Positions 34,949 through 64,000 of a stretch of 64,000 nt of DNA are shown here, piece by piece. Under the pieces are notes generated by a model. The model was not told where the DNA came from. It saw only the letters and a list, made by a program, of their open reading frames with translations, and did not search any database. The stretch covers positions 56,321 through 120,320 of the forward strand of contig JADJNZ010000009.1 of the NCBI GenBank assembly GCA_016714015.1, read 5' to 3'. Numbering within the stretch: the first letter of the stretch is position 1; each line of letters begins with the position of its first letter. This stretch comes from Gemmatimonadota bacterium. GTDB taxonomy: Bacteria > Gemmatimonadota > Gemmatimonadetes > Gemmatimonadales > Gemmatimonadaceae. The position numbers and the translations under genes were made by a program.

Positions 34949-35932
34949 ATGGCCCAAGGACCGACGTTGCTCGCGGTGCTCCGCGACCGCCTCCGCACGC
35001 GGCACTACAGTCCGCGCACCGCCGAATCGTACGAGGGGTGGGTGCGGCGGTACGTGCGGTTCCATGGGCGCCGCCACCCGCGCGAGATGGACGTGAAGGA
35101 GCTGCGGGATTTCCTGACGCATCTCGCGCGCGACCTCAAGGTGAGCGCGAGCACGCAGAACCAGGCGCTCGCCGCGATCCGGTTCCTGTATGAGGTGGTC
35201 CTCGAGCGGCCGATGGCCGCGCCGACCGATCATCTGGTCGCCAAGCGTCCGACCCGGCTTCCGACGGTCCTCTCGGCGGAGGACGTGGACCGAGTGCTCG
35301 GCGCGATGCGTGGCACGCCGCGGCTGATGGCACAGCTGCTGTACGGCAGTGGCCTTCGCGTGATGGAGTGCTGCACCTTGCGGGTGAAGGACCTCGACCC
35401 GGGCCGCGGCGAGCTGACCGTGCGGCGCGGCAAGGGCGGCACGGACCGCCGGACCATGCTGCCGGAGGGGGTGCTGGTCGGACTGCGCGAGCACCTGAAG
35501 GAGATGCGGGAGCAGCATGCGCTCGACGTGGCGCGCGGGGCGGGGTACGTCGCGTTGCCTGGCGCGCTGCGCGCGAAGCTCGGCCCCGAGTCCGGCCGTC
35601 GCTGGGAGTGGCAGTGGCTCTTCCCGGCCACGCGCGAGTACTTGGATCCGGAGTCGGGCGAGCGTCGTCGCCACCATCTCCACGAGACCGTCGTGCAGCA
35701 GTCGGTGACCGCAGCCGCGCGGGAAGTGGGCCTGAGCCAGCGGGTGACGTGTCACACGCTCCGTCACTCGTTCGCGACGCACCTGCTCGAGGCGGGGTAC
35801 GACATCCGGACGATACAGGAGCTGCTTGGCCACCGGGACGTGAGCACGACGATGATCTACACCCATGTGCTGAACCGTGGCGGGCTGGGGGTTCGGAGCC
35901 CGCTGGACGGGCTACCTCGTCGTCGGCGCTGA
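34949..35932 (+). CDS. intI: Integron integrase (tyrosine recombinase)
   Basis: [32 protein letters not shown], integron-specific insert ([25 protein letters not shown]), [35 protein letters not shown]. Confidence 0.98.
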
Positions 35933-36099
35933 GCGCGGCGCGGGGGCCGAATTAGACAGACCGGTCCAATTCACCCAAGCGGAGGCGGACGGGGGGAACG
36001 CGGCAGCTATGGCGTTCTCCTGCTGGGGGTTGCGGGGTGGCGGTCTTCGGGCGGAACGTTAGAGTGGCGGCTCGGCCTGGGGGATCTGGTGGGATTGGA

Positions 36100-36124
36100 C
36101 AGGTCAAGCCAATACACGTTATGC
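36100..36124 (+). other. Putative attI site (core GTTATGC at 36118-36124), downstream of intI
   Basis: First core site without an upstream attC hairpin; complementary to R'' GCATAAC of attC1. Confidence 0.7.
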
Positions 36125-36452
36125 GGCCGGGAACGAGTGAACTGGCAACGGCTTCCCCGCAGGTGTCGCCCGCGCCGACCCGCCTGGCCCCGCTGAACTC
36201 GGCCGTCGTGTCTTCTCTTTGGGGGGTGCGCTCGATCAGATCTGTCTGGCACCGCGGCCGGTCGCGCTCCGGTGATCTCGATTGCTCGCGCCAGCACGGG
36301 TGCCACGCGAGGTAGCGGTCCGCACGCCGGCTGGGCAAGACGTTCGCCTCTCGCAATGCCGCCGCATAACGCGGGTTGGTGACCGATGGCCGGCTATTGA
36401 TGGCGGCCGCTCCGCGGCCGCATTATTGGATCGGCCACGGCACAACCAAACG
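36119..36452 (+). other. Cassette 1, ORF-less (family A), 334 bp
   Basis: Bounded by core 36118 and attC1; no convincing gene; homologous to family C. Confidence 0.75.
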
Positions 36453-36458
36453 TTAGCT
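36364..36458 (+). repeat. attC1 (short class)
   Basis: R'' gcataac, R' gttagct. Confidence 0.95.
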
Positions 36459-36489
36459 CGCTGGAACTGACTTCGATCCAGGCAAGCAC

Positions 36490-36651
36490 ATGGAGAAGTT
36501 GCTGGTGATGCTTGTGTCGACCGTCGCGAGTGCCGCTGGCTGGTGGCTCGGGGCGCACGTCGGGATCATGACGGCCTTCATCACGAGCATCATCGCGCTG
36601 GGACTCGGCGTGTGGGGCGGTCGGCAGCTCGCGCGCCGATGGATGCTGTAG
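36490..36651 (+). CDS. Cassette 2: 53-aa two-TM membrane protein
   Basis: MEKLLVMLVSTVASAAGWWLGAHVGIMTAFITSIIALGLGVWGGRQLARRWML (below ORF-track cutoff). Confidence 0.75.
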   Translation: MEKLLVMLVSTVASAAGWWLGAHVGIMTAFITSIIALGLGVWGGRQLARRWML

Positions 36652-36671
36652 CCGACGCCTCGCGGCCCACG

Positions 36672-36804
36672 AGCTAACGGCAGTTGGTGCAGATGGCCGG
36701 CTAGGGTGGCGGGTTGGCGGCCCCGGCCTCATCGTACTTCAGGGTCGGCCGTGGCCGCCAACCCGCAATTATTGGATCGGCCACAGCACAACTAGACGTT
36801 AGCG
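36672..36804 (+). repeat. attC2
   Basis: agctaac...gttagcg. Confidence 0.95.
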
Positions 36805-36834
36805 AGACCGGAACACCTCTCGCGAGACACGAAG

Positions 36835-37239
36835 ATGCCCTTCGAGAAGATGTGGAATACGAGGCTGGTGAAAGGCGTTCCGGTGCGCCGTCGGTTCATC
36901 CTCGCTGCGTTGAGCGCTGCGGTGGTTGCTCTCGTGTGGTCGCCAATCGAACGCATGTCCGATGCGAGGAGGGCTCAGTCTATCGCGTCGTTCGAGAGCG
37001 TCTTGCCGCCGAGCGACCCTGAAAACGGATTCGTCTGCTTGTTGCGGTACCGGGAGCCACTCTACGTCGTGGACGGCCAAGAACTGTCCCCTGCCGCGGC
37101 GAATCGCATCGTCCCGGAGGCGATCGAGTCGATCGAACTCATGGACAACAAGGCGGCAGGTGCAGTCTACGGCATCCGTGCTCGTGTTGGCGTAGTGTTG
37201 ATCGCCACGCGAGCCAAGCGTCCGCCCGCGGCTCGCTAA
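36835..37239 (+). CDS. Cassette 3: membrane-anchored stand-alone TonB-receptor plug-like domain
   Basis: PLYVVDG..IESIELM..AAGAVYGIRARVGVVLIAT; stop inside R''. Confidence 0.7.
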   Translation: MPFEKMWNTRLVKGVPVRRRFILAALSAAVVALVWSPIERMSDARRAQSIASFESVLPPSDPENGFVCLLRYREPLYVVDGQELSPAAANRIVPEAIESIELMDNKAAGAVYGIRARVGVVLIATRAKRPPAAR

Positions 37240-37367
37240 CGGCGGTTGGTGACCGATGGCCGGCTAGGGTAGCGGGGCGGCGGCCCCGCCTTATCGTCAC
37301 GGGAGGGTCGGCGTGGCCGCCGCCCCGCAATTATTTGAACGGCCACGGCACAACCTTGACGTTATGC
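37234..37367 (+). repeat. attC3
   Basis: cgctaac...gttatgc. Confidence 0.95.
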
Positions 37368-37900
37368 CGACGATCACACATCTCAGTCGTGCGCGTGAAG
37401 GTCTGCTGGCCGCCTGGAAGTGTTGCCTCTCGTTCACGAAGAGCGAGTGGCGGCTTGAGGACTATCCGCTGCGTCTGCGCCAGCAGTCGACGGGCAGCGG
37501 AGGCACCGTCCCCCCGTGGTCGGCTCAGATTATTGGCTACTGGCAGTTGTGCGGGCTTGGCGAGTCGCGTGAAGCCGCTATCGCCGACCTAACCTCGAGG
37601 CTTGAGCTCGTGCGTTCGCGCGGACCGCTTCCTCGCCCCGGGACCAAGGTTCCGGTGGTATTCGCTGCGTCGAGCGAGCTGGAACGCCACGGTGAGTTCG
37701 CCTTTGAGTTTGTGGAGCGAGTCACGGGCATTCGTCCCTTATTCATGTCGGACGAGTCATCGCTCGCTGACTTTGCGGACGGTGAGGGATTGGAGGAGTT
37801 CCGCGCAAAGATCTTCGCCGAGTACGGTCGAGAGGTACGGCTGGAGCTTGATGGGCCCCTCTGGCGGGTGCTTGACGCGGTCGGAGCTGGCGCGGCATAA
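37364..37900 (+). CDS. Cassette 4: hypothetical protein with a HicB-like segment
   Basis: WSAQIIGYWQLCGLGESREAAIADL; ATG directly after core GTT. Confidence 0.7.
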   Translation: MPTITHLSRAREGLLAAWKCCLSFTKSEWRLEDYPLRLRQQSTGSGGTVPPWSAQIIGYWQLCGLGESREAAIADLTSRLELVRSRGPLPRPGTKVPVVFAASSELERHGEFAFEFVERVTGIRPLFMSDESSLADFADGEGLEEFRAKIFAEYGREVRLELDGPLWRVLDAVGAGAA

Positions 37901-38027
37901 CGGCAGTTGGTGCTGATGGCCGGCTGGGGTAGCGGGTTGGCGGCCCCGGCCTCATCGTACCGCAGGGTCGGCCGTGGCCGCCAACCCGCATCTATGGAAT
38001 CGGCCACAGCACAACGTGACGTTAGGC
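37895..38027 (+). repeat. attC4
   Basis: gcataac...gttaggc. Confidence 0.95.
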
Positions 38028-38044
38028 GGAGCTCTGTGAGGTCG

Positions 38045-38788
38045 ATGACGCGGACAATCATGTTGCTCGCTGCGACGTCGCTTCTCGCGGCGTGTGCGCC
38101 CGAGATACCTCCAAGTTGGGAGCGCGGAAACTGTCTCGCTTCGACGCCAGAGGCTACACAACTGGCGCTCCTTCGTGCGCGGGCGGACTCGTCGCCGATC
38201 TTCCTGCTCGGCTCGACCGACGCCGCGCGGCTCCGCGGTGAACTCGATCGCCGCGCACGCGCGCTCGAGCAAGACACGATCTGGGTCCGTAGTGCCGACA
38301 CGGTACTGACCCAGCCGCCGCTCAGCGATGCGTGGTGGCATGTCGTTCAGACAGTACATCCCGAGCTCGAGCCGATGGACTCGTCGCTGGCGCGCGCGTA
38401 CGTCCAAGGTCGTTTCGCGCTTGATTCGACGCACACGGCGTTCCTCCTTCGTGTGCCCGGCGTTGAAGTCGCGTTCCGCGAGGAACTCTGGATTCACAGC
38501 GCCGTCGGACAGTGTTTCCTATTGCCCGAGCTCCTGGCACTCGCGTGGGGTGATGGTGGAGAGACCAGCGAGCTGGAGACATGGATTGTTGACTTGGACG
38601 CAAATGGAGTGCGCGAGCTTGTGCAGCGCAGCTATTCGTCGATTACGACGGAGAATCCGGACGACACGCTGGCCGTGACGGAGATATCTGATTCAGTCGC
38701 CGTACTCCGATGGAGAGTGCCGCGGTTCGTGCAGGACTCGAGCTTTGACCTCAACCGGATTCCGTGGGCGCGAATCCCCAGACCGTGA
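38045..38788 (+). CDS. Cassette 5: lipoprotein
   Basis: MTRTIMLLAATSLLAAC lipobox. Confidence 0.8.
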   Translation: MTRTIMLLAATSLLAACAPEIPPSWERGNCLASTPEATQLALLRARADSSPIFLLGSTDAARLRGELDRRARALEQDTIWVRSADTVLTQPPLSDAWWHVVQTVHPELEPMDSSLARAYVQGRFALDSTHTAFLLRVPGVEVAFREELWIHSAVGQCFLLPELLALAWGDGGETSELETWIVDLDANGVRELVQRSYSSITTENPDDTLAVTEISDSVAVLRWRVPRFVQDSSFDLNRIPWARIPRP

Positions 38789-38811
38789 TGGCGAGTGTCG
38801 AACCGCGGCCC

Positions 38812-38945
38812 GCCTAACGGCGGTTGGTGACCGATGGCCGGCTAGGGTAGCGGGTTGGCGGCCACGCTTTATCGTTCCTGAAGGACCGGCGTGGCCGCCA
38901 ACCCGCATTTCATTTGAACGGCCACGGCACAACCTGACGTTAGCC
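38812..38945 (+). repeat. attC5
   Basis: gcctaac...gttagcc. Confidence 0.95.
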
Positions 38946-38953
38946 CGACCTAC

Positions 38954-39409
38954 ATGAGATCGCGTCGAAGACACACTCCAACTCACCCACTGCTGCCTGA
39001 GGAAGCGTCCACGGCGCTCAATGTCGTGACGTTCCTCTTCGCATCGAGCGGAGGACTGTCGTTGCTGTTTCTCGCCGTCGGCCTCGTCGGCAAACTGCTC
39101 GGCTGGAGCGTGATGGCCGATGTCGCCATCAACCCACTCATCGTCCTCATCCGCCTAGCAGTCGCCGCTGGTTACCTCTGGACCGCGTGGCTGCTTTCCG
39201 AACGGCGCGAACTCGGCGGCTTCCTCGGCCTCGGGTTCCTCGGGCTTTCGATCGCGCCCCCCTTGCTGCTCGGTAGCAGGGTAGGCAGCAGCAACCTGTT
39301 GATTCCGGTCCTCGGCGCCATCGGCCTCGCGCTGTCCTGGTCGTACTTGAACGACGAGGATGAGGCAGCGCGAGACGCGTCTGCGAAGATCGGTCCGCGG
39401 GCGGGCTAA
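38954..39409 (+). CDS. Cassette 6: 4-TM membrane protein
   Basis: Hydrophobic helices; stop inside R''. Confidence 0.8.
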   Translation: MRSRRRHTPTHPLLPEEASTALNVVTFLFASSGGLSLLFLAVGLVGKLLGWSVMADVAINPLIVLIRLAVAAGYLWTAWLLSERRELGGFLGLGFLGLSIAPPLLLGSRVGSSNLLIPVLGAIGLALSWSYLNDEDEAARDASAKIGPRAG

Positions 39410-39537
39410 CGACGGTTGGTGACCGATGGCCGGCTAGGGTAGCGGGTGGGCGGCCCCGCCCTCATCGTACTTCAGGGTCGGGCGTGGCCGCCCACCCGCA
39501 ATTATTGGAACGGCCACGGCACAACCTGACGTTAGGC
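39404..39537 (+). repeat. attC6
   Basis: ggctaac...gttaggc. Confidence 0.95.
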
Positions 39538-39563
39538 GGACGGAGGAGGCTCTGGAGCGCTAC

Positions 39564-40214
39564 ATGCAGGCGGCGTTCATCGCCATGGCCGTGGCCACGA
39601 TCTCTAATGCCGCGAACGCTCAGCGCGCGCGCGAATGCGTCGCAGTGCCAGCGTCGCGCACTGCATCGCTCGACTCGGCGCAGCAAGCTCTCGGGTTCCG
39701 CCTCTACTGGCCAGCAATCGAGGCCTGCGGTCCCGAGAGAATTGTCGCTGCACTCTGGACGCCCGAGCGTGATCGCGACGGTGACTTCGGTTCGCGCATT
39801 GCATTGCTTCGACCCACGGACGGGCGCTCCTTCGTCGCAGTCTCGTTCTCGCGAGGCTTCCTTGAGTCGAGCCTGCCACGCGTGCGCGCGTTCGAGGCCC
39901 GGGGCCGAGTGCTCGCACTCGCGGACCTTGGTGACGAAGGAGGGAGTTGGGGTATCGAGGCATTCGAGGTGCTCCGCGACAGCCTTCTTGCGCTCGGCCG
40001 CCTGGATGTTGGCAAATCCTCGCGTGACGATGAGAATGACGGATCGGCCTTCAGCCACTTGGCCGTCGCGCTGAGTGCGGGAGAATGGCAGGTGAGCTTC
40101 GACACCGTTGTCGTGCTCGAACCGAACCGAGATTCTCGCTCCGTCATCGAGGCAAGTCCGCGCAGGCCGGCCCGGTTCCGCGCGCACGGCGGCACGTGGC
40201 GCCGTCTTCCGTGA
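39564..40214 (+). CDS. Cassette 7: secreted hypothetical protein
   Basis: Signal peptide MQAAFIAMAVATISNAANA; fills cassette. Confidence 0.75.
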   Translation: MQAAFIAMAVATISNAANAQRARECVAVPASRTASLDSAQQALGFRLYWPAIEACGPERIVAALWTPERDRDGDFGSRIALLRPTDGRSFVAVSFSRGFLESSLPRVRAFEARGRVLALADLGDEGGSWGIEAFEVLRDSLLALGRLDVGKSSRDDENDGSAFSHLAVALSAGEWQVSFDTVVVLEPNRDSRSVIEASPRRPARFRAHGGTWRRLP

Positions 40215-40220
40215 GCCGCC

Positions 40221-40353
40221 GCCTAACGGCAGTTGGTGCTGATGGCCGGCTGGGGTAGCGGGTTGGCGGCCCCGGCCTCATCGTACTTCAGGGTCGGCCG
40301 GGGCCGCCAACCCGCATTAATGGAATCGGCCACAGCACAACTTGACGTTATGT
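40221..40353 (+). repeat. attC7
   Basis: gcctaac...gttatgt. Confidence 0.95.
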
Positions 40354-40378
40354 TGACGACAGACCTCGTCGCGGCAGA

Positions 40379-40909
40379 ATGAGTCGCTCGCCCATCATCC
40401 GATACGCCAACGACTGGCTGCATTCACGAACGGCCTTGCTCGGGTACGCGGGCGCGTTCGCCGCCGAGGCTCGCGCGCTCTCGGGGGTCGTGCGCATTGC
40501 CCTGCTCGGATCGATCCTGACCGAGAAGCCGGATCCGAAGGACATTGATCTGCTCGTCATCGTGAGCGAGTCGTGCGACCTCGAACGCCTCGCCATGATG
40601 GCCCGCCGCGTGAAGGGTCGGGCCCAGAGCCTTGGCCGTGGCGCGGACGTGTTCCTCGGCGCCGAGAACGGGACATACCTCGGGCGCGCGTGTTCGTGGC
40701 GCGATTGTCGGCCTGGCGTGCGCAAGGCATGCGACGCGAACCATTGCGGCCGACGGCCGTTCCTCCATGACGATCTGCAAACCATCACGCTGCCGACGGA
40801 GCTCGTTCGAGAGCCGCCGCTTGAGTTGTTTCCACATGTGCTCGCGCGGCGCGCTCTGCCCGCGGACGTAGCGAAGTGGCTCGCTGAGCTGGCCGGATCC
40901 GCAACATAA
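40379..40909 (+). CDS. Cassette 8: minimal nucleotidyltransferase-fold protein with a Cys-rich C-terminal segment
   Basis: IALLGSILTEKPDPKDIDLLV (GS..DxD), third Asp in ADVFL, C-x3-C..C-x4-C. Confidence 0.8.
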   Translation: MSRSPIIRYANDWLHSRTALLGYAGAFAAEARALSGVVRIALLGSILTEKPDPKDIDLLVIVSESCDLERLAMMARRVKGRAQSLGRGADVFLGAENGTYLGRACSWRDCRPGVRKACDANHCGRRPFLHDDLQTITLPTELVREPPLELFPHVLARRALPADVAKWLAELAGSAT

Positions 40910-41037
40910 CGGCAGTTGGTGCAGATGGCCGCGCTGGGGTAGCGGTTGGGCGGCCGCGCTTTATCGTACACTTCGGTACGGCGCGGCCGCCCAACCGCAT
41001 CTTATGGAATCGGCCACAGCACAACTTGACGTTAGGT
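40904..41037 (+). repeat. attC8
   Basis: acataac...gttaggt. Confidence 0.95.
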
Positions 41038-41105
41038 TGACCGGAATTGGCTCCGTCCGGATCACTTCACACCGCACCGTCGCCAGTTTGGAGGCTGAGT
41101 CGTCC

Positions 41106-41702
41106 ATGCCGAGTAGGACGCTGACGTACAGGTGTCTGGTTATCTCGCCGAGCGACGTGGACGAAGCGCGCGACGCCGTGTGTGACGTGTTGGGCAGATG
41201 GAATGCGTCTATCGGTGTCGCGCTCGACCTGCGCGTCGAAGCAGTTCGGTGGGAGACGCATTCCCGACCAGAACTCGGCGGACATCCGCAGTCACTCCTT
41301 GACAGCCAGGTTGTCGCCGGCGCTGACTTCGGAATCGCAGTCTTCGGTGCGCGGATTGGCACTCCCACGCTTGAATGGGAGTCTGGCTCGGTTCACGAGA
41401 TTGAGCGCCTCAGAGGTGGTGGCGCGGAAGTCATGGTCTACTTCGACGCGGGTGCGCTTCCGCGCGATGTAGATCTCGCTCAGCTCGAAGCACTGCGCGC
41501 GTTCCAAACTCGAGTGCGCACACAGGGAATCGTATTTGAGTACAGCTCTCTCTCTGATCTGCGCGAGCACATCATGCATCACGTCACCACGCTGCTCGGC
41601 AGTCGCGCAAACCACGAGCGCTTTAGCACCTTCATTGAGAAGCGCACGAGCGACCCGGACTCGCCACGCGAAGGGCAGATCTGGCTTCGCACCGATCTGT
41701 GA
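41106..41702 (+). CDS. Cassette 9: DUF4062/TIR-NDT-like Rossmann-fold protein
   Basis: LVISPSDVDEARDAV, VRWE, ADFGIAVFGARIGTPT, SGSVHEIE, VMVYF. Confidence 0.75.
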   Translation: MPSRTLTYRCLVISPSDVDEARDAVCDVLGRWNASIGVALDLRVEAVRWETHSRPELGGHPQSLLDSQVVAGADFGIAVFGARIGTPTLEWESGSVHEIERLRGGGAEVMVYFDAGALPRDVDLAQLEALRAFQTRVRTQGIVFEYSSLSDLREHIMHHVTTLLGSRANHERFSTFIEKRTSDPDSPREGQIWLRTDL

Positions 41703-41720
41703 CTGCGAGTTGCGCGAGCA

Positions 41721-41854
41721 ACCTAACGGAGGTTGGTGCAGACGGCCGCGGTAGCGAAGCAGGTGGGCGGCCACGCTCTGTCGTACCTTTCGGTAGCGCG
41801 TGGCCGCCCACCTGCATTTTATGAAAGCGGCCGCAGCACAACCAAACGTTAGCC
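41721..41854 (+). repeat. attC9
   Basis: acctaac...gttagcc. Confidence 0.95.
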
Positions 41855-41872
41855 ATTTGCAGAGGCCTTCGC

Positions 41873-42634
41873 GTGAGTGAAGTCGTCGGAGCTCCCGGTC
41901 GGTTCCTGACCGCGCAGTGGCGCGACTTGCTCATGCTCAACTTTGTCGTCGACCCGCGCCTGCTCGCATCGTACGTGCCTGCCGGCACAGAACTGGATCT
42001 GTGGCAGGGCGAGGCAATCGTGAGTGTCGTCGGATTCCGATTCGTCGACACGAGATTGCTGGGCCTGCCTCTCCCCGGGCACCGGAACTTTGAGGAGGTC
42101 AATCTCCGCTTCTATGTGCGCCGGCACGAGCCGACCGAAGTGCGCCGCGCCGTTGTCTTCATCCGCGAACTCGTTCCGCGACGGGCCATCGCGTGGGTCG
42201 CCAAAGCATGGTACAACGAGCCCTATCGCGCGCTGCGCATGAGGCACACGGTGCTCGCGCAGGGCGACGACCGCTCGGTCCGCTATGAGTGGCGTGAGGG
42301 CAGCGTCTGGACCGGGCTAGCGGCGCGCACCGTCGGCGCACCGTCCGCGCTTGTTCCAGGATCGGAGGCCGAGTTCATCACGGAACACTATTGGGGCTAC
42401 ACTCGCCAGCGCGACGGCGGCACCGTCGAGTACCAGGTGGCGCATCCATCGTGGCGCGTGTGGGCGGCGCATGACGCCACGCTCAGCGGCGACATCGCCG
42501 TGACCTACGGTGACGCGTTTGCCCCTGCGCTCGGTGGCGCGCCGCGGTCGGCGTTCGTGGCCGAGGGCTCGCCCATCACCGTGTATCGTCCCCGTCGCCT
42601 CTCGTTGGTCGAGCACGGCGCGCGCAATGGCTAA
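41873..42634 (+). CDS. Cassette 10: DUF2071/YqjF-family protein
   Basis: FLTAQWRDLLMLNF, FEEVNLRFYVR, EFITEHYWGY. Confidence 0.88.
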   Translation: MSEVVGAPGRFLTAQWRDLLMLNFVVDPRLLASYVPAGTELDLWQGEAIVSVVGFRFVDTRLLGLPLPGHRNFEEVNLRFYVRRHEPTEVRRAVVFIRELVPRRAIAWVAKAWYNEPYRALRMRHTVLAQGDDRSVRYEWREGSVWTGLAARTVGAPSALVPGSEAEFITEHYWGYTRQRDGGTVEYQVAHPSWRVWAAHDATLSGDIAVTYGDAFAPALGGAPRSAFVAEGSPITVYRPRRLSLVEHGARNG

Positions 42635-42762
42635 CGGAGGTTGGTGCAGTCGGCCGCGCTAGGGAAGCAGGTGGGCGGCCGCGCTTTGTCGTACCTTGAG
42701 GTACGGCGCGGCCGCCCACCTGCATCTTATGAAAGCGGCCGCAGCACAACCAAACGTTAGGG
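42629..42762 (+). repeat. attC10
   Basis: ggctaac...gttaggg. Confidence 0.95.
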
Positions 42763-42782
42763 CGACTTCCGCGAAGGAGAGA

Positions 42783-55674: not shown

Positions 55675-55682
55675 AGGGTGCC

Positions 55683-55815: not shown

Positions 55816-55846
55816 TGACGAGACAGAGGTCGGTCTCACTCCTAGA

Positions 55847-56179
55847 ATGTCGATCTCACCCGAATCCGCCGTTGCATACGGAACGAGGACCGTGAACTAT
55901 CCGGTCGTCGGAACCATGATCGCCCTTGGCGTTGGAGGCGTGGTATGGGCGGCACTCTCGTGGTCTCGACTGCCGCTCGCTATCTCCGTCTTCGCGCCGC
56001 TGCTAGCCTGGCCGGTTTGGTCCTGGCGCATCGCACGTTGGCGCGACTGGGTAGTCGACCACGGTCTTGAGCCGGATGACGTTCACGAGTTGGCCGTCCG
56101 AGCCGGGCTGCTCTGGCCGCGTGGGTCGGCGCTTGAGCGCACGGAGATGCGTCGCCGAAGTGGCCAGCGCGGGTGGTGA
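55847..56179 (+). CDS. Cassette 30: two-TM membrane protein
   Basis: GTRTVNYPV..TM..WSWRIARWRDW..GLLWPRGS. Confidence 0.8.
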   Translation: MSISPESAVAYGTRTVNYPVVGTMIALGVGGVVWAALSWSRLPLAISVFAPLLAWPVWSWRIARWRDWVVDHGLEPDDVHELAVRAGLLWPRGSALERTEMRRRSGQRGW

Positions 56180-56191
56180 CGCGGCGCCGCA

Positions 56192-56327
56192 GGCTAACGG
56201 CGGTTGGTGACCGATGGCCGTGGGTAGGGTAGCGGGTTGGCGGCCGCGCTTTTTCGTTCCTGAAGGACCGGCGCGGCCGCCAACCCGCATTTTGTTTGAA
56301 CGGCCACGGCACAACCTGACGTTATGC
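56192..56327 (+). repeat. attC30
   Basis: ggctaac...gttatgc. Confidence 0.95.
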
Positions 56328-56824
56328 CGACCTCCCAGGCCGTAGGTGCCGACAAGATGGATCCTTCATTCATTCCAACCGATAGCCTCTACAAGTTCGT
56401 CTCGATGAGCGGCGTAGTGCTCGTGTGCGTCTCGCTATGGGCGGTGCTGAAGCTCCGTGCAATCGTCTGGGCTCGACTATTCGACGCGGAGCGGAAGCTC
56501 GGCGTCGTCGACGTAGAGCTCTCGTTCTTGAGGCCGAAGAAGGGCTCAGCGGCAGCCGAAGTCTCTGTCGCCCCGGCCCCTTCGGTGCCACGCGAGGAGG
56601 TTAAGCGCGTCCTTCTGCTGCACGAGGAGAACCGTGTCCTGCATCGCGAGATTCGGCACCAGGTTCGCGAGTTGATCGTCCTTTCGGTAATCGCGTTGTT
56701 CACGACGGGCACCGGATTCGGAATGGCGTACTGGGGCTTCACCAATTGGTACTCCAAGATCCAGGTTCACAGCGACAAGCTGCTCGCGGCCGATTCGCTC
56801 CCCGGCGTCGAACAGAAGCCATAG
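56324..56824 (+). CDS. Cassette 31: two-TM protein with a coiled-coil loop
   Basis: IPTDSLYKF..TM..coiled coil..TM..WYSKIQ. Confidence 0.8.
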   Translation: MPTSQAVGADKMDPSFIPTDSLYKFVSMSGVVLVCVSLWAVLKLRAIVWARLFDAERKLGVVDVELSFLRPKKGSAAAEVSVAPAPSVPREEVKRVLLLHEENRVLHREIRHQVRELIVLSVIALFTTGTGFGMAYWGFTNWYSKIQVHSDKLLAADSLPGVEQKP

Positions 56825-56834
56825 TGTCCGGGCG

Positions 56835-56968
56835 GCATAACGGCAGTTGGTGACCGACGGCCGTCTAGGGGAGCAGGTGGTCGGCCGCGCCTTGTCGTAC
56901 CTTTCGGTACGGCGCGGCCGCCCACCTGCATCTTATGGAAGCGGCCGCGGCACAACTTGACGTTAGGC
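56835..56968 (+). repeat. attC31
   Basis: gcataac...gttaggc. Confidence 0.95.
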
Positions 56969-56993
56969 GGACGAGCCAGCATTGAGGGAGGGC

Positions 56994-57371
56994 ATGGCGA
57001 ACGACTCTGTATTGATTGATCATGCCAAGATCACCGACGGCTTCGGTCAGCTCGTGGGCTTCGTCGCGTATCTGGCCTTTGAGTCGTTCTGTGGAATCTG
57101 CGACGATCCCATCGAAGTGTCAGCGGCAGAGCAGAAGTTCCTACTAGAAGTCAAGCAGGTGCCCGTAAAGATGCTGCTGCGCGGAGCGACGTTCTGCGCT
57201 CGCTGCCGAACGCGTCGCGCGAAGATCAACCAGTTGGCACAAGGCGAGCGCTGGCGCACGATCGAGGGGGCAGGCGAGGAGTTGGAGCGTCTCCGTGCGG
57301 AGGAGAGTGCCCTGATGCTGGAGTCGCGGAATCGATCACCCGGAACGAAGTGGCCGTATCGCGCCGCCTAA
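56994..57371 (+). CDS. Cassette 32: zinc-ribbon domain protein
   Basis: FCGICDDPIEVSAAEQKF..FCARCR; GGGAGG RBS. Confidence 0.8.
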   Translation: MANDSVLIDHAKITDGFGQLVGFVAYLAFESFCGICDDPIEVSAAEQKFLLEVKQVPVKMLLRGATFCARCRTRRAKINQLAQGERWRTIEGAGEELERLRAEESALMLESRNRSPGTKWPYRAA

Positions 57372-57499
57372 CGACGGTTGGTGACCGATGGCCGGCTAGG
57401 GTAGCGGGTGGGCGGCCCCGCCCTCATCGTACTCCAGGGTCGGGCGTGGCCGCTCACCCGCAATTGTTTGAACGGCCACGGCACAACCAAACGTTAGGG
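57366..57499 (+). repeat. attC32
   Basis: gcctaac...gttaggg. Confidence 0.95.
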
Positions 57500-57535
57500 C
57501 GACCTGAATCAGATGCTTCCCTCTCCGGAGTCGTG

Positions 57536-57796
57536 ATGAACAAGTTCTTGCGCGCCGTGAAGGCAGGTATCGGCGCGGCGGCCGGATCGAGCGGACCTCG
57601 CCGCTACCAGGTCGCTGGGCGCGCGTTGAAGTGCCCGATGTGCGGCCACGATCACTTCGCGCGCGGCGAAGCGCAGTTGCACTCCATGGGAATGACGTTC
57701 GTCGGACTCGAGTGGGCGCAGAAGGAGGCGACCACTCTGGCGTGCGCGCAGTGTAGCCGCGTCGAGTGGTTCCTTGATGCGCCCGACGAGGCATAG
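57536..57796 (+). CDS. Cassette 33: small zinc-ribbon protein
   Basis: LKCPMCGHDHF..LACAQCSRVEWF; GGAG RBS. Confidence 0.85.
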   Translation: MNKFLRAVKAGIGAAAGSSGPRRYQVAGRALKCPMCGHDHFARGEAQLHSMGMTFVGLEWAQKEATTLACAQCSRVEWFLDAPDEA

Positions 57797-57806
57797 CGCG
57801 CCGGCG

Positions 57807-57940
57807 CCCTAACGGCGGTTGGTGACCGATGGCCGGCTAGGGTAGCGGGTGGGCGGCCCCGCCCTCATCGTACCTCAGGGTCGGGCGTGGCCGCCCACCC
57901 GCAATTACTGGATCGGCCACGGCACAACCTGACGTTAGGC
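57807..57940 (+). repeat. attC33
   Basis: ccctaac...gttaggc. Confidence 0.95.
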
Positions 57941-57942
57941 CG

Positions 57943-58551
57943 ATGCACTCTACTTGGGAGTCTATGAGAGTCCCTCGCCTCGCACTGTTGTGTGCGGCGC
58001 TGGCCCCGTTTTCGACGCCAACCGCAGGGGCGCAGGCGCCTCAGGCGCAGCTCCCGGGCACATATGAGTTCTGGATCTGTCGCGGAAGCTGTCGGTCCTC
58101 GACGGATAGCGCGGTCTTCGCGCGCGGCGTGCTGGTGCTCTTCGAAGCGACCATTCCGGCGGAGTCGCTCTCTGTCTTGCCCCGAAACATCGAATGGGCG
58201 TTGCGGTCCAATGCGTGCTTCGTGTTTCTCGAGCAGCGACGCACGCACGCGCAGTCCTTTGCAGGCATCACGGTCAGTGGGCTCACGAACTGGGAGGTGG
58301 ATTCTGCCTCCCTCCTCAGTCTGCTCCTGTATCGCTCTCCAGATGCTTGGTACAGCGTCCGGTTGGCGCCGCGACAGACGGGATGGCACGGAGGAGGCCA
58401 CTCCCGCGGATTCGGTGAGACTCCAGAGGACGTGGACGATTCCGTGGGTGTACGTCGGGCTTCGGCTCCCGAGTTGTCCCACTGTCGTAGAGCGCCCGGA
58501 CCGCGCCGTGCCTTTGGTCCGCTGCCACCACGGCCTAACGGCAGTTGGTGA
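57943..58551 (+). CDS. Cassette 34: secreted hypothetical protein
   Basis: Signal peptide ending AGAQ; stops in L''. Confidence 0.7.
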   Translation: MHSTWESMRVPRLALLCAALAPFSTPTAGAQAPQAQLPGTYEFWICRGSCRSSTDSAVFARGVLVLFEATIPAESLSVLPRNIEWALRSNACFVFLEQRRTHAQSFAGITVSGLTNWEVDSASLLSLLLYRSPDAWYSVRLAPRQTGWHGGGHSRGFGETPEDVDDSVGVRRASAPELSHCRRAPGPRRAFGPLPPRPNGSW

Positions 58552-58666
58552 CCGACGGCCGTCTAGGGTAGCAGGTGGGCGGCCGCGCCCTGTCGTACCT
58601 TTCGGTACGGCGCGGCCGCCCACCTGCATCTTATGGAAGCGGCCGCGGCACAACTAGACGTTAGCC
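58533..58666 (+). repeat. attC34
   Basis: gcctaac...gttagcc. Confidence 0.95.
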
Positions 58667-58684
58667 AGACGAGAGGAGACTCGA

Positions 58685-59002
58685 TTGCGCGTTGAGCTTT
58701 CGGAACTCACAGAGCCTTCGTTTAGGCTATGCGATGCGTTCCTCGAGGGTTTCAGCTGGCTCAATGACGGGCACGACGTGAGGCTCGATCTAACGAACGG
58801 GTTCCAGCAGGCGGTTCAGATCACATGCAGGTGGGTGACGAACCTTCAGATTGAGCTGAAGCCCAACCCTAAGCCCTTCTCGTGGGAGTGTTCAGCGGAG
58901 AAAGTTGGGGTCCGATGGCACTTGCTCCTCGATTTCGCGAGCACAGGCTCAATACAGCTGGAGTGTGAATCCGCGATCTTGGAGTCGGCGACTGGCGACT
59001 GA
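58685..59002 (+). CDS. Cassette 35: small beta-rich protein, weakly immunity-protein-like
   Basis: GAGGAG RBS, TTG start; DAFLEGF..VRLDL..GSIQLECE. Confidence 0.7.
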   Translation: MRVELSELTEPSFRLCDAFLEGFSWLNDGHDVRLDLTNGFQQAVQITCRWVTNLQIELKPNPKPFSWECSAEKVGVRWHLLLDFASTGSIQLECESAILESATGD

Positions 59003-59021
59003 TCGAGTCGGGCTCGCCGCG

Positions 59022-59156
59022 GGCTAACGGCAGTTGGTGACCGACGGCCGCGTTAGGGAAGCAGGTGGGCGGCCGTGCTCATTTGTACCTTCCGGTATCG
59101 CACGGCCGCCCACCTGCATTTTATGGAAGCGGCCGCGGCACAACTTGACGTTAGGG
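59022..59156 (+). repeat. attC35
   Basis: ggctaac...gttaggg. Confidence 0.95.
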
Positions 59157-59192
59157 CGACGACACTAGCGCCGTCTCACTCGGAGCAGAATC

Positions 59193-59432
59193 ATGGGTGC
59201 GCTCTTTCCACTCGCCTTCCTAGTAGCCATCGGCGCCCTCGTGACTCTTGGCGTCGGCTTGAGCGTCTACCAGAAGCGCGCTACGCAGCGACTGACCGAC
59301 GAACGGGACGATGATCGCCTGGCTATGCTGGAAGCTCGGTTAGAGGCGCTCGAGAGCCGTGCCGATTCGACGGATCGCGCTCTCGAAAGGGGGGCGAAGC
59401 CCCGCGAGCTTCAGTCCGGGGACTCAGCATGA
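59193..59432 (+). CDS. Cassette 36: single-TM plus coiled-coil protein
   Basis: TM then RLAMLEARLEALESR. Confidence 0.8.
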   Translation: MGALFPLAFLVAIGALVTLGVGLSVYQKRATQRLTDERDDDRLAMLEARLEALESRADSTDRALERGAKPRELQSGDSA

Positions 59433-59520
59433 GTCGGTCCAGCTCATTGCGAGTCCCGCTGGCGTTCCGCGAGTTGAGATCCGGATCAGAAGGGGCGTGA
59501 CCGAACTTCCGCGCGGCGCG

Positions 59521-59654
59521 CCCTAACGGCAGTTGGTGCAGACGGCCGCGTCAGTGAAGCAGGTGGGCGGCCGTGCTCTTTCGTACCTTTCGGTATCGCA
59601 CGGCCGCCCACCTGCATCTTATGAAAGCGGCCGCAGCACAACTTGACGTTAGCC
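59521..59654 (+). repeat. attC36
   Basis: ccctaac...gttagcc. Confidence 0.95.
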
Positions 59655-59665
59655 TGACACGCGCG

Positions 59666-60184
59666 ATGCGACTGGCACTGCTGCTCCTGACAACGGTCCT
59701 GGTTTCGTGTGCGCGCTCCGAAGCTCCGCGTGCCGAATCCGCGCGGATCGACGCCGCGGTCGCGTCGATCAGCGCGATGGACGATTCGAGTTGCGCGTTT
59801 GACCGGGCGCTCCGCCACATCGTGGGCGACTCGCTGGTCCGCGAGTTCGTTCGGCGTGCCGCGACTGGATCCTTCGATCGAACCGAGGAGTGGTTACCTA
59901 CCGCCGTCGATTGTATCGGCCACGAACCCGGATACGATACGTTCCTCGTCCTCGATTCCACTCGCGTCTCGCAGTTGCCCGCCGGTTCCGACACCTTGCG
60001 CTACGCTCTCAGCTCGCGACTCAGAGGTCGGCTGGTCGGCGGTCAGTTCGAACCCGACAGCGTCGCTCGAGTCGACACGATCGTTGCTTATCGCACGATG
60101 GCCGGATGGCGCATTGCTAGCCCCGCCTTCTGGAATTGGATGTCACCCGAGGCTGCCCGACTGAAGGGTTGGCGCGTGAGATAG
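59666..60184 (+). CDS. Cassette 37: lipoprotein
   Basis: MRLALLLLTTVLVSC lipobox. Confidence 0.8.
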   Translation: MRLALLLLTTVLVSCARSEAPRAESARIDAAVASISAMDDSSCAFDRALRHIVGDSLVREFVRRAATGSFDRTEEWLPTAVDCIGHEPGYDTFLVLDSTRVSQLPAGSDTLRYALSSRLRGRLVGGQFEPDSVARVDTIVAYRTMAGWRIASPAFWNWMSPEAARLKGWRVR

Positions 60185-60204
60185 GCAGCGGGGGCCGGGG
60201 TGCA

Positions 60205-60338
60205 GGCTAACGGCGGTTGGTGCAGATGGCCGTGCTAGGGTAGCGGGGCGGCGGCCCCGCCTTATCGTACTACTTGGGTCGGCGTGGCCGCCGCCCCGCA
60301 AATTGTTGGAACGGCCACGGCACAACCTGACGTTATGT
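60205..60338 (+). repeat. attC37
   Basis: ggctaac...gttatgt. Confidence 0.95.
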
Positions 60339-60389
60339 GGACGCGAGCGCGGGATGGCTCTACGACCGCTCGCCCCCTAGATTCCGTTC

Positions 60390-60584
60390 ATGCGTCTCTC
60401 CTTCGAGCTCACCGAGGCCCAGCAGGGCCAGCTCAACGCCATCGCCCAGCGGCTGAACGTGCCGGTGGACGCACTGGCGGCTGCCGCGTTGCGTGACCTG
60501 CTCGACCGTCGCGAGGCCGCCTACGAGACCGCGGCCCGCCATGTCGTCGAGAAGAACGCCGAACTCTACCGAAAGCTCGCGTAG
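60390..60584 (+). CDS. Cassette 38: antitoxin (RHH-like DNA-binding, Doc partner)
   Basis: 64 aa ending HVVEKNAELYRKLA, directly upstream of doc. Confidence 0.85.
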   Translation: MRLSFELTEAQQGQLNAIAQRLNVPVDALAAAALRDLLDRREAAYETAARHVVEKNAELYRKLA

Positions 60585-60599
60585 CGGGCGCCCGTTCGC

Positions 60600-60998
60600 G
60601 TGGCGACCCGGTTCCTTTCGCTCGCAGAAGTCCTCGATCTCTACAGCCGCGTGTTGGTCGCCGGCGGGGGCGCGTCTGCTATTCGCGATCTCGGCGCGCT
60701 GGAGTCCGCGCTCGCGCAGCCACGTGCGACGTTTGCCGACGAGGATCTCTATCCGTCGCTCGCCGAGAAGGCGTCCGCCCTTGGCTTCTCGCTCATCCTC
60801 AATCACCCGTTCGTCGACGGCAACAAGCGCATCGGCCACGCGGCGGTTGAAGTCTTTCTGGTGCTGAACGGCTTCGAGCTGTCGGCAGGGATTGATGACG
60901 CCGAACGGGTCATCCTCGGCGTTGCGGCGGGGACAATCAGTCGGGACGAGTTCACGACGTGGATCCGAGAATCTCTCGTCGCATTCCCGGCACCGTAG
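60600..60998 (+). CDS. doc: Cassette 38: death-on-curing (Fic-fold) toxin
   Basis: IRDLGALESALAQP, NHPFVDGNKRIG. Confidence 0.93.
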   Translation: MATRFLSLAEVLDLYSRVLVAGGGASAIRDLGALESALAQPRATFADEDLYPSLAEKASALGFSLILNHPFVDGNKRIGHAAVEVFLVLNGFELSAGIDDAERVILGVAAGTISRDEFTTWIRESLVAFPAP

Positions 60999-61015
60999 CG
61001 GATCGGACGGGCGCC

Positions 61016-61149
61016 ACATAACGGCAGTTGGTGCAGACGGCCGCGCTGGGGTAGCGGTTGGGCGGCCGTGCTTTATCGTACCTGACGGTACCGCACGGCC
61101 GCCCAACCGCATCTTATGGAAGCGGCCGCAGCACAACTTGACGTTAGCC
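61016..61149 (+). repeat. attC38
   Basis: acataac...gttagcc. Confidence 0.95.
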
Positions 61150-61151
61150 GG

Positions 61152-61370
61152 ATGAGAAATGGATTCGAGCATCCCATGAACGCGAATTCCGAGGCTCCTG
61201 GAACGGGAGCGATTCGGCGATGGGGCGGCATGTTCGCGACGGTGTTGTTTGCGGCGAGCCTGGTCGTGCACATCCGTGACGGATCATCAGTGGGACACCT
61301 TATGTCCGCGGCTGGTATGACCGTCGTGTTCGGCGCGCTTACATGGCAGCAGTGGCGGCGGCCACGGTGA
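61152..61370 (+). CDS. Cassette 39: small two-TM membrane protein
   Basis: 72 aa, two hydrophobic helices. Confidence 0.7.
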   Translation: MRNGFEHPMNANSEAPGTGAIRRWGGMFATVLFAASLVVHIRDGSSVGHLMSAAGMTVVFGALTWQQWRRPR

Positions 61371-61396
61371 CGCCGCCTTGGATGTCGAGCGTCACC

Positions 61397-61530
61397 GGCT
61401 AACGGAGGTTGGTGCAGACGGCCGCGTTAGGGAAGCAGGTGGGCGGCCGTGCTCTTTTGTACCTTTCGGTATCGCACGGCCGCCCACCTGCATCTTATGG
61501 AAGCGGCCGCAGCACAACCAAACGTTATGC
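61397..61530 (+). repeat. attC39
   Basis: ggctaac...gttatgc. Confidence 0.95.
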
Positions 61531-61861
61531 GGGCGGGGGACAGCCAACTGGCGTCGGCGTCACCGCGTGGGAAGTACAGCCCGAGGCATCGACGCCGCTG
61601 AACGTCGGCGTCCTCAATCCCACCGCTTTGGGGAGCGCGCTCCGCCAGGATCAAGCGACGCCGCGGCTCGGAGGGCTTCGCCGGGCGTCCGCGCGCCCGC
61701 ATTGCGTACGAGGTGGTCGGTCCGGCGCGCGCGCGAGGGTGGGCGCGCGGGGGTGAGTACGGCGGGCCACCGCATAACGGCAGTTGGTGCAGATGGCCGC
61801 GCTATTGATGGCGGCGCGCTCCGCGGCCGCATTATTGAAGCGGCCACAGCACAACCACACG
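61525..61861 (+). other. Cassette 40, ORF-less (family C1)
   Basis: 337 bp; only a 24-codon 5' ORF. Confidence 0.8.
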
Positions 61862-61867
61862 TTATGC
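61772..61867 (+). repeat. attC40 (short class)
   Basis: gcataac...gttatgc. Confidence 0.95.
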
Positions 61868-62198
61868 GGGCGGGGGACAGCCAACTGGCGTCGGCGTCAC
61901 CGCGTGGGAAGTACAGCCCGAGGCATCGACGCCGCTGAACATGGGCGTCCTCAAGCCCACCGCTTTGGGGAGCGCGCTCCGCCAGGATCGAAGCGCCGCC
62001 GCGGCTCGGAGCCGCCTCGCCGGGCGTCCGCGCGCTGGCATTGCTTACGAGGTGGTCGGTCGGCGCGCGCGCGAGAGTGGGCGCGCGGGGGTGAGGACGG
62101 CGGGCCGCCGCATAACGGCAGTTGGTGCAGATGGCCGCGCTATTGATGGCGGCCGCTCCGCGGCCGCACTATTGGGGCGGCCACTGCACAACCAAACG
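61862..62198 (+). other. Cassette 41, ORF-less (family C2)
   Basis: 337 bp paralog. Confidence 0.8.
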
Positions 62199-62204
62199 TT
62201 AGCT
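62110..62204 (+). repeat. attC41 (short class)
   Basis: gcataac...gttagct. Confidence 0.95.
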
Positions 62205-62222
62205 GGACGGGAGCGGAGATCA

Positions 62223-62633
62223 GTGAAGCCGAATGCCGCCAGTTTGCGCGCGTTGTGCGAGTGCTACACGCCGATCGGCGTGATCTATCCGTGGAGACGC
62301 GCGCTCAAGCGCGCCGGTTACGCGCGGGTCCGATCACAGTTGGTGCCTGACTGGCTGGTGCCGGTGCTACGAGACAATCCGCAGCTGATCGAGGGATGGG
62401 TGCGCTACGTGGAGGACAAGCGAGGCGACTTCGGCTGGATCCTGCAGCAGCGAGCCGACCTGCGCTGGGTGGTCTGCTATCGCGCCGACTGCCAGTGGCC
62501 GGCCACGTACGAGGACGGCGCAATCGCGTGCGCGCAGTTCCTGGTCCGCGAGTTCGAGGTGCTGTACGGCAGGCCCCGTGGGAACGCAAACGGTGGCACT
62601 TTGCACCGGAGTCCGGGTGTGGCCGCCAGCTAA
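62223..62633 (+). CDS. Cassette 42: hypothetical protein
   Basis: GGAG RBS; stop inside R''. Confidence 0.7.
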   Translation: MKPNAASLRALCECYTPIGVIYPWRRALKRAGYARVRSQLVPDWLVPVLRDNPQLIEGWVRYVEDKRGDFGWILQQRADLRWVVCYRADCQWPATYEDGAIACAQFLVREFEVLYGRPRGNANGGTLHRSPGVAAS

Positions 62634-62761
62634 CGGCAGTTGGTGACCGACGGCCGTCTAGGGGAGCAGGTGGGCGGCCGTGCTCTTTTGTACCTTTCGG
62701 TATCGCACGGCCGCCCACCTGCATTTCATGAAAGCGGCCGCGGCACAACTTGACGTTATGC
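62628..62761 (+). repeat. attC42
   Basis: agctaac...gttatgc. Confidence 0.95.
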
Positions 62762-63091
62762 GGGCGGGGGACAGCCAACTGGCGTCGGCGTCACCGCGTG
62801 GGAAGTACAGCCCGAGGCATCGACGCCGCTGAACATGGGCGTCCTCAAGCCCAACGCTTTGGGGAGCGCGCTCCGCCAGGATCGAGCGCCGCCGCGGCTC
62901 GGAGCGCCTCGCCGGGCGTCCGCGCGCTGGCATTGCTTACGAGGTGGTCGGTCCGGCGCGCGCGCGAGAGTGGGCGCGCGGGGGTGAGGACGGCGGGCCG
63001 CCGCATAACGGCAGTTGGTGCAGATGGCCGCGCTATTGATGGCGGCCGCTCCGCGGCCGCATTATTGGGGCGGCCACTGCACAACCAAACG
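62756..63091 (+). other. Cassette 43, ORF-less (family C3)
   Basis: 336 bp paralog. Confidence 0.8.
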
Positions 63092-63097
63092 TTATGC
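63003..63097 (+). repeat. attC43 (short class)
   Basis: gcataac...gttatgc. Confidence 0.95.
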
Positions 63098-63427
63098 GGG
63101 CGGGGGACAGCCAACTGGCGTCGGCGTCACCGCGTGGGAAGTACAGCCCGAGGCATCGACGCCGCTGAACATGGGCGTCCTCAAGCCCACCGCTTTGGGG
63201 AGCGCGCTCCGCCAGGAGCGAGCGCCGTCGCGGATCGGAGCGCTTCGCCGGGCGTCCGCGCGCCGGCATTGCGTACGAGGTGGTCGGTCCGGCGCGCGCG
63301 CGCGGGTGGGCGCGCGGGGGTGAGGACGGCGGGCCGCCGCATAACGGCAGTTGGTGCAGATGGCCGCGCTATTGATGGCGGCCGCTCCGCGGCCGCATTA
63401 TTGGAGCGGCCACAGCACAACCAAACG
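63092..63427 (+). other. Cassette 44, ORF-less (family C4)
   Basis: 336 bp paralog. Confidence 0.8.
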
Positions 63428-63433
63428 TTATGC
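63339..63433 (+). repeat. attC44 (short class)
   Basis: gcataac...gttatgc. Confidence 0.95.
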
Positions 63434-63763
63434 GGGCGGGGGACAGCCAACTGGCGTCGGCGTCACCGCGTGGGAAGTACAGCCCGAGGCATCGACGCCG
63501 CTGAACGTGGGCGTCCTCAATCCCACAACTTTGGGGAGCGCGCTCCGCCAGGATCGAGTGCCGCCGCGGCGCGGAGCGCTTCGCCGGGCGTTCGCGCGCC
63601 GGCATTGCTTACGAGGGGGTCGGTCCGGCGCGCGCGCGAGGGTGGGCGCGCGGGGGTGAGGACGGCGGGCCGCCGCATAACGGCAGTTGGTGCAGATGGC
63701 CGCGCTATTGATGGCGGCCGCTCCGCGGCCGCATTATTGGAGCGGCCACAGCACAACCAAACG
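63428..63763 (+). other. Cassette 45, ORF-less (family C5)
   Basis: 336 bp paralog. Confidence 0.8.
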
Positions 63764-63769
63764 TTAGGG
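63675..63769 (+). repeat. attC45 (short class)
   Basis: gcataac...gttaggg. Confidence 0.95.
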
Positions 63770-63791
63770 CGACGAGACCGGCATCGATCGT

Positions 63792-64000
63792 ATGCTAAGC
63801 GCGCACACCGCTCGTTGGCTGTTGTGTCCCCTCGCTGCCGTCGGCTCATGCGGAGCGACAGGCATCGCGTCGCGGGGCGTCCAAGGGTGGCTCCAGACAC
63901 GCCTCGGCCAGGCGACGCTTGAGGCAGTGCTTCCGCTAGATGGACAGGAAGCCGTCCGCCTCGCGCTCGAGGCCCTCGTGTTCGTCTTGGCCGGTTCGCT
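63792..64000 (+). CDS. Cassette 46: probable exported protein, truncated by the window end
   Basis: MLSAHTARWLLCPLAAVGSC..., open to the end. Confidence 0.55.
   Translation, partial: MLSAHTARWLLCPLAAVGSCGATGIASRGVQGWLQTRLGQATLEAVLPLDGQEAVRLALEALVFVLAGS

Follow-up and report, generated by a model that had tools for sequence, protein, structure and literature searches.

Integrons in which the integrase gene reads in the same direction as its cassette array and lies 5' of it have been published as the 'inverted integron-integrase' type (PMC4889954, PMC13323075, PMC3607928). This layout was described by Cury et al., is listed in a 2026 survey as one of two accepted structures (PMC13323075), and has its classical case in the integrons of Treponema (PMC3607928), the inverted group comprising Treponema denticola and other Treponema having been treated by Boucher et al. 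2007 (taken up again in PMC4889954 and PMC3607928); the inverted integron-integrase group is reported to be paraphyletic (PMC4889954). Gemmatimonadota have already been listed as an integron-bearing phylum (PMC8618304), and the integron of Gemmatirosa kalamazoonensis KBS708 is very large and among the largest annotated on a 'plasmid' (PMC9024848). The present analysis concerns a stretch of 64,000 nucleotides (nt) from a Gemmatimonadota bacterium (GenBank assembly GCA_016714015.1, contig JADJNZ010000009.1, positions 56,321 to 120,320 of the forward strand), hereafter called the window, which carries on its plus strand an integron integrase gene, intI (34949..35932), and downstream of its stop codon an attI site and an array of 45 cassettes, each closed by an attC site (36119..63763). 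This arrangement, with intI and all 45 attC on the plus strand, is that of the inverted integron-integrase type, and the locus is very probably a complete, sedentary chromosomal integron of this type in the chromosome of a member of the Gemmatimonadaceae from activated sludge or wastewater.

G. kalamazoonensis KBS708 is a cultured member of the same family, Gemmatimonadaceae, and the integron on its 1.1-Mb replicon (NZ_CP007129.1) likewise has intI co-oriented with and 5' of the array, with all attC on the intI strand. Its array is larger, with 36 attC within the first 20 kb and about 42 beyond them, i.e., about 78 as compared to at least 45 in the window, and its attI, where GTTAGCC pairs with the first R'', lies about 280 nt past the intI stop. 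However, the two integrases are only 60% identical, and the attC sites of G. kalamazoonensis, with about 96-98 nt of the length of the short class in the window, score 14-38 bits on the covariance model of the window sites in contrast to 78-151 bits for the window sites themselves; moreover, its integron resides on a secondary replicon, whereas the window has a main-chromosome context. The inverted integrons of Treponema are chromosomal and sedentary like that of the window but differ in phylum and attC family. The superintegron of Vibrio cholerae shares with it the large array of highly similar attC, the predominance of cassettes of unknown function, toxin-antitoxin and duplicated cassettes, and an integrase that can be aligned over its full length (2A3V), but there intI is divergent from the array, attI and the promoter Pc lie upstream of intI, and the cassettes are about four times as many. 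Class 1 mobile integrons, finally, have a recombinase of the same family (IntI1, about 50% identical) and follow the same logic of a G|TT crossover but, unlike the window, are mobile on Tn402 or plasmids and have few cassettes with heterogeneous attC and resistance genes, as well as a divergent intI1.

The intI product comprises 327 amino acids (aa) from the methionine at 34949, whereas a start at the upstream ATG (34904) would lengthen it to 342 aa, and a database protein (P0001) with the same start and length is 100% identical to it. It scores 407 bits against TIGR02249 ('integron integrase', cutoff 265), and Pfam finds a SAM-like N-terminal domain (Phage_int_SAM_4) together with the catalytic Phage_integrase domain. 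In addition, it aligns end to end with V. cholerae IntI4/VchIntIA (PDB 2A3V, 283 bits); the IntI-specific insert, or additional domain, aligns with the corresponding VchIntIA segment, and the catalytic motifs including IYTHV are identical in the two proteins.

The attC sites were searched for by two regular-expression half-site scans and then by a covariance model built from the sites found, which was run over all 64 kb with filters off. The half-site scans counted 45 5' halves and as many paired 3' halves on the plus strand; on the minus strand they gave no 5' half and two unpaired 3' halves, both outside the array. The covariance model returned exactly the same 45 sites, scoring 78-151 bits on the plus strand as compared to 16-58 bits on the minus strand, and found no other site at E<0.08 in the whole window and none upstream of intI. 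The generic attC pattern RYYYAAC...GTTRRRY recovers just three of the 45 sites, because many R'' boxes in this array read GCATAAC. A looser AAC...GTT palindrome finder gave nine false matches in the 35-kb non-integron flank and was dropped; for the arrays of relatives, repeat arrays from self-BLAST and the covariance model were used in its place.

The sites span 27.4 kb (36364-63769), all on the plus strand, and lie in the order of their numbers at 36364-36458, 36672-36804, 37234-37367, 37895-38027 and 38812-38945 (attC1-5); 39404-39537, 40221-40353, 40904-41037, 41721-41854 and 42629-42762 (attC6-10); 43848-43981, 44647-44780, 45303-45436, 47079-47212 and 47715-47847 (attC11-15); 48466-48599, 49046-49140, 49866-49999, 50469-50601 and 51128-51261 (attC16-20); 51764-51896, 52413-52546, 52758-52851, 53127-53261 and 53473-53566 (attC21-25); 53853-53986, 54445-54577, 55007-55140, 55683-55815 and 56192-56327 (attC26-30); 56835-56968, 57366-57499, 57807-57940, 58533-58666 and 59022-59156 (attC31-35); 59521-59654, 60205-60338, 61016-61149, 61397-61530 and 61772-61867 (attC36-40); and 62110-62204, 62628-62761, 63003-63097, 63339-63433 and 63675-63769 (attC41-45). 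After the R' GTTAGGG of attC45 a 46th cassette begins on the same strand (63764..64000), truncated where the window ends; the covariance model finds no attC in the 231 nt that are left up to base 64000.

With respect to their structure, two length classes of sites can be distinguished, 36 measuring 133-136 nt and nine measuring 94-96 nt, which have the same proximal stem and R and L boxes (TAACG...GTTGGTG // GCACAAC...ACGTTA) and differ in their distal hairpins. The class of about 134 nt has a long distal hairpin rich in G + C, and that of about 95 nt goes with cassettes lacking an open reading frame (ORF). TAAC...GTTA is invariant in all 45 sites, at a mean column identity of 76%, and the bottom strands fold better than shuffled sequences (z from -5.0 to -8.4). 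The consensus has 19 proximal stem pairs, four of them with compensatory changes (e.g., G-C/A-U 20:19 and U-A/C-G 26:19), and, as in canonical attC, single-base bulges are found mostly on the R''-L'' arm, with four unpaired columns as compared to one on the other arm. An array of 45 homogeneous attC exceeds the size that defines sedentary chromosomal integrons (more than 10-19 attC); thresholds for large arrays of homogeneous attC are discussed in PMC9024848.

The cassette boundaries are equally regular. Each of the 45 R'' 7-mers is exactly complementary to the R' of the site before it, the partner of the first site being GTTATGC at 36118, as compared to a mean of 8.7 and a maximum of 22 in 100,000 permutations. 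This complementarity reaches 9-10 nt in 41 sites, and just eight of the 45 match their own in-situ R' over at least 7 nt. The pairing of each R'' with the R' before it is the pattern expected from cassettes cut and joined between G and TT. In the mechanism proposed from these sequences, IntI would bind the folded bottom strand of attC, cassettes would be excised through attC x attC recombination, and the circles would be re-inserted at attI with a cut between G and TT; each cassette thus starts with TTRRRY pairing with its own R'', because insertion would cut at this position. The preliminary description of this DNA had announced an IntI with intact catalytic motifs, 45 attC in 27.4 kb that all lie on the intI strand, and 5' cores complementary to their own R'' in every cassette, and it is borne out on each of these counts: by the full-length alignment with 2A3V and the TIGR02249 score, by the agreement of the half-site scans with the covariance model, and by the 45 matches in 45 set against the permutation maximum.

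The attI core, GGATTGGACAGGTCAAGCCAATACAC-G|TTATGC, is located at 36092..36124 on the plus strand; its crossover falls between G36118 and T36119, at a distance of 186 nt downstream of the intI stop, and here GTTATGCGGC has 10-nt complementarity to the R'' of attC1. In the related loci L081 and L082 (IntI 87% identical), the spacer is conserved up to ...CCAATACACGTT (...GGATTRGACAGGTCAAKCCAATACACGTT) and diverges right after GTT. Binding of IntI and recombination at G|TTATGC are predictions, the site having been placed by R'' pairing and by the divergence among orthologs and populations. In G. kalamazoonensis, GTTAGCC is preceded by CTGTCTAATCC, the complement of GGATTAGACAG, which is found at the attI of the window and after the intI stop; this motif and GTTA are all that is common, as the 23-nt attI core of the window was not found in G. 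kalamazoonensis at up to three mismatches. In L083 (IntI 79% identical), tandem repeats of about 21 nt (CTCGCAGGCGYCTGACAGTYC) take the place of the conserved attI spacer (11005-11400).

Directly after the intI stop, an imperfect palindrome, GAATTAGACAGACCGGTCCAATTC, can be read from the sequence at 35949..35972 (plus strand). It contains GATTAGACAG, has the motif GATTRGACAG in common with the attI core, and has a perfect counterpart, GGATTAGACAGACCTGTCTAATCC, in L081 (about 10980-11005). The palindrome motif also flanks the attI crossover, both in the window and in G. kalamazoonensis. The palindrome might be an accessory IntI site, a terminator or an operator.

As the distal end of the array lies outside the window, it could be argued that the array is owned by a second intI/attI of the canonical, divergent kind located past base 64000, with the intI of the window as a bystander (In0). 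However, the attC top strands and the cassette ORFs read away from the window intI, and therefore attI must be on the left and ownership by a second intI is excluded. In addition, the R'' of the first cassette pairs with GTTATGC at 36118, exactly where the orthologs and other populations diverge, and the 1.1-Mb replicon of G. kalamazoonensis has one IntI match only, co-oriented and at the head of its array. The probability left for a second intI is accordingly negligible.

Comparison with natural populations points to the same junction. In four sludge, wastewater or bioreactor runs (Logan contigs) the intI-attI segment is present at 97-99% identity. Contigs of the runs X1, X3 and X4, which are independent metagenomes, match the window to 36121 and then end or enter a different cassette; in run X3, a contig of 2053 nt comprises intI-attI and continues past GTTA with GGTTGAGCG..., a cassette absent from the window. 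In none of the four runs is there any depth over the unique parts of cassettes 1 and 2, despite the presence of intI. Populations with nearly the same integrase thus have different first cassettes, joined at the predicted crossover. Logan-contig 'joints' between distant attC were not counted as rearrangements, their short side measuring 18-34 nt inside repeated attC sequence.

With respect to the host, TypA (28879-30747) has 86-96% identity to proteins bearing the names Gemmatimonadaceae, Gemmatimonadota or Gemmatimonas. The segment between 17 and 32.8 kb, with mfd, two surA-like genes, pdxA, typA and ppk2, has the same gene order as a 3.1-Mb Gemmatimonadaceae contig, and the organism occurs in many runs from activated sludge and wastewater. 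The synteny shared with other Gemmatimonadaceae chromosomes stops exactly at a tRNA-Ile(GAT) gene (32943-33017), tRNA being all that Rfam returns at gathering thresholds. There follow an abhydrolase gene, a TspO-like gene, intI and the array; the abhydrolase - TspO-like - intI segment recurs only in contigs with an IntI 79-87% identical, and the order typA-ppk2-...-intI is kept in L081 (87%) and L083 (79%). The G + C content is 72% over about the first 36 kb and 64-65% over the remainder of the window. TypA identity and upstream synteny hence uphold the earlier assignment of a sedentary integron to a Gemmatimonadota chromosome, within limits, since close relatives are without an integron at this locus: 'sedentary' therefore holds for a narrow lineage only, and gain or loss of the integron has occurred within the family.

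These same relatives, with TypA 91-94% identical, could also speak for a location outside the main chromosome, either on a large mobile island or on a secondary replicon, as could the precedent of G. kalamazoonensis with its integron on a 1.1-Mb 'plasmid', the drop in G + C content from 72% to about 65% in the array, and the loss of synteny right after ppk2 at tRNA-Ile (32943-33017), a typical insertion point of islands. The segment from tRNA-Ile to the array may have entered as an island at the tRNA gene. However, the 15 kb upstream (mfd, surA-like, pdxA, typA, ppk2) are collinear with the 3.1-Mb Gemmatimonadaceae contig, no transposition or conjugation genes adjoin intI, and the same arrangement of flank and intI is found in three other contigs with diverged IntI, so a location off the main chromosome seems quite unlikely. 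Within the flank, the TspO-like gene shows in-frame insertions of 9 and 18 nt in a Pro/Gly/Ala repeat (34428-34438) in other samples, and in run X2 a 9-nt duplication in its stop region (34846).

Turning to the cassette content, a plus-strand ORF fills at least 70% of the part preceding attC in 33 of the 45 cassettes, as compared to seven on the minus strand; 12 of these plus-strand ORFs end on TAA within R'', and three further ones read through R'' into attC. Most cassette proteins have no match in Pfam, NCBIfam or PADLOC. Recognisable are DUF2071 in cassette 10, a PhyH-type dioxygenase in cassette 18 and, as a weak match, DUF6932 in cassette 8, while the 221-aa protein of cassette 9 (41037-41702), without a match in Pfam or NCBIfam, matches the N-terminal 170 positions of PDC-S60, a candidate defence protein of PADLOC (E 1e-21). 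Cassette 14 (45431-47206, 1776 bp) contains an IS30-family transposase gene (45438..46652, plus strand; NF033563 transpos_IS30, 274.9 bits at a cutoff of 80; Pfam HTH_38 and rve), followed by a second small plus-strand ORF. R''/R' complementarity is intact around this whole unit. Depth over its transposase region is high in each of the four DNA runs. Terminal inverted repeats or other ends of an insertion sequence were looked for at the IS30-like element, and none could be assigned.

Cassette 38 holds a pair resembling the Phd-Doc toxin-antitoxin system on the plus strand (60390..60998), in which a 64-aa ORF precedes a 132-aa Doc (Fic/DOC) toxin (Pfam Fic, 60.2 bits; TIGR01550 DOC_P1, 42.9 bits at a cutoff of 38.65); from its position, the 64-aa ORF is the presumed antitoxin. 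Such a cassette may guard the array against loss, although this stabilising role is conjectural. Two pairs of cassettes are duplicates, 15 with 21 and 23 with 25. Five copies of a cassette of about 336 bp with a G + C content of about 75% (40, 41, 43, 44 and 45; 61525..63763, plus strand) are interrupted by cassette 42. These copies (repeat families D6, D7, D9 and D13) have no convincing ORF, their G + C content being evenly high at all three codon positions, all have a short attC of about 95 nt, and they could be promoter or RNA cassettes. Cassette 1 (36119-36452), of the same size and also with a short attC, has a 5' leader 72-77% identical to theirs over 47 nt and may be a further member of this family.

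Several observations weigh against the interpretation as a complete sedentary integron with a working integrase. The array was seen to base 64000 only, its distal end lying outside the window, and L205 and L207/L208 (TypA 91-94% identical) are without an integron downstream of typA-ppk2. In three metatranscriptomes the upstream abhydrolase and TspO-like genes are covered and intI is uncovered, one cDNA run gives thin intI coverage only, and no RNA contigs cover the cassettes. A scan of 34700-37000 for sigma-70 promoters and terminators, which is blind to non-standard promoters, gave no match. Furthermore, catalysis and strand choice of IntI at these sites are predictions from the sequence, and the tandem 336-bp cassette copies could have arisen by homologous recombination instead of IntI. 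Taken together with the IS30-family transposase gene in cassette 14, several of these points could also describe a fossil array, in which an integron was once active, IntI no longer acts, and homologous recombination and drift shape the array: intI is unseen in the three metatranscriptomes, and unequal crossing-over between near-identical attC could explain the tandem copies of one cassette length (61.5-63.8 kb) as well as the duplicates 15/21. However, the IntI ORF is intact with all catalytic motifs present, all 45 R''/R' pairs are still perfect over at least 7 and usually 9 nt although they would decay without selection or recent recombination, and populations with 97-99% identical intI-attI have a different first cassette joined exactly at G|TT. 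Consequently, a fossil array is an unlikely explanation.

The cassettes, being without a recognisable promoter of their own, would be read from upstream of attI, either by read-through from intI or from a promoter in the 186-nt spacer. Read-through is possible because intI reads into attI without a recognisable terminator or promoter in between. A more specific version, in which read-through from intI or TspO-intI drives cassette expression and the ORF-less cassettes with 75% G + C restart transcription deep in the array, is conceivable but doubtful.

How common the layout is was judged from 80 genomic loci encoding relatives of the window IntI. At least 19 of them have repeat arrays or covariance-model matches on the intI strand downstream of the gene, and at least nine have them upstream on the opposite strand. 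Among the Gemmatimonadota loci, all arrays that could be placed are downstream of intI; most of the Gemmatimonadota contigs end 0.3-1.5 kb past intI, which would be expected of assemblies breaking within the array. A neighbour-joining tree computed from 81 IntI, which is without support values and without Treponema or Chlorobium, places the window in a Gemmatimonadota clade that lies within a larger set with downstream arrays, the loci with upstream arrays broadly clustering apart. The conserved 3' half of the attC sites was found in more than 120 metagenome contigs from many samples. The reversed architecture can therefore not be called unusual, contrary to the preliminary description, since at least 19 of 80 related loci, including every readable Gemmatimonadota locus, have it; nor do these attC form a family private to the array. 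Nor is an integron new to this phylum, as Gemmatimonadota are among the listed phyla (PMC8618304) and G. kalamazoonensis has the same layout. Architecture, phylum and a larger example in a cultured relative are already in the public record, and the novelty claimed earlier is overstated.

Thus, the current picture of integron biology is unchanged by the window. What it adds is a cleanly resolved chromosomal integron of the inverted type outside Proteobacteria and Spirochaetes, of which 45 cassettes, the position of attI and the attC family are defined. Its host is common in wastewater treatment plants, where assembly from short reads usually breaks off at the first attC. With the attC model and the attI junction, orphan cassette contigs from sludge and soil metagenomes can be assigned to Gemmatimonadaceae, and the cultured G. 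kalamazoonensis KBS708, with the same layout, offers a practical model for cassette expression in inverted integrons. If ORF-less cassettes with 75% G + C indeed restart transcription, they would be internal promoter or regulatory-RNA cassettes, and if read-through from intI holds true, an inducer of the integrase would also switch on the first cassettes, which is the opposite of the canonical logic of divergent Pc and Pint.

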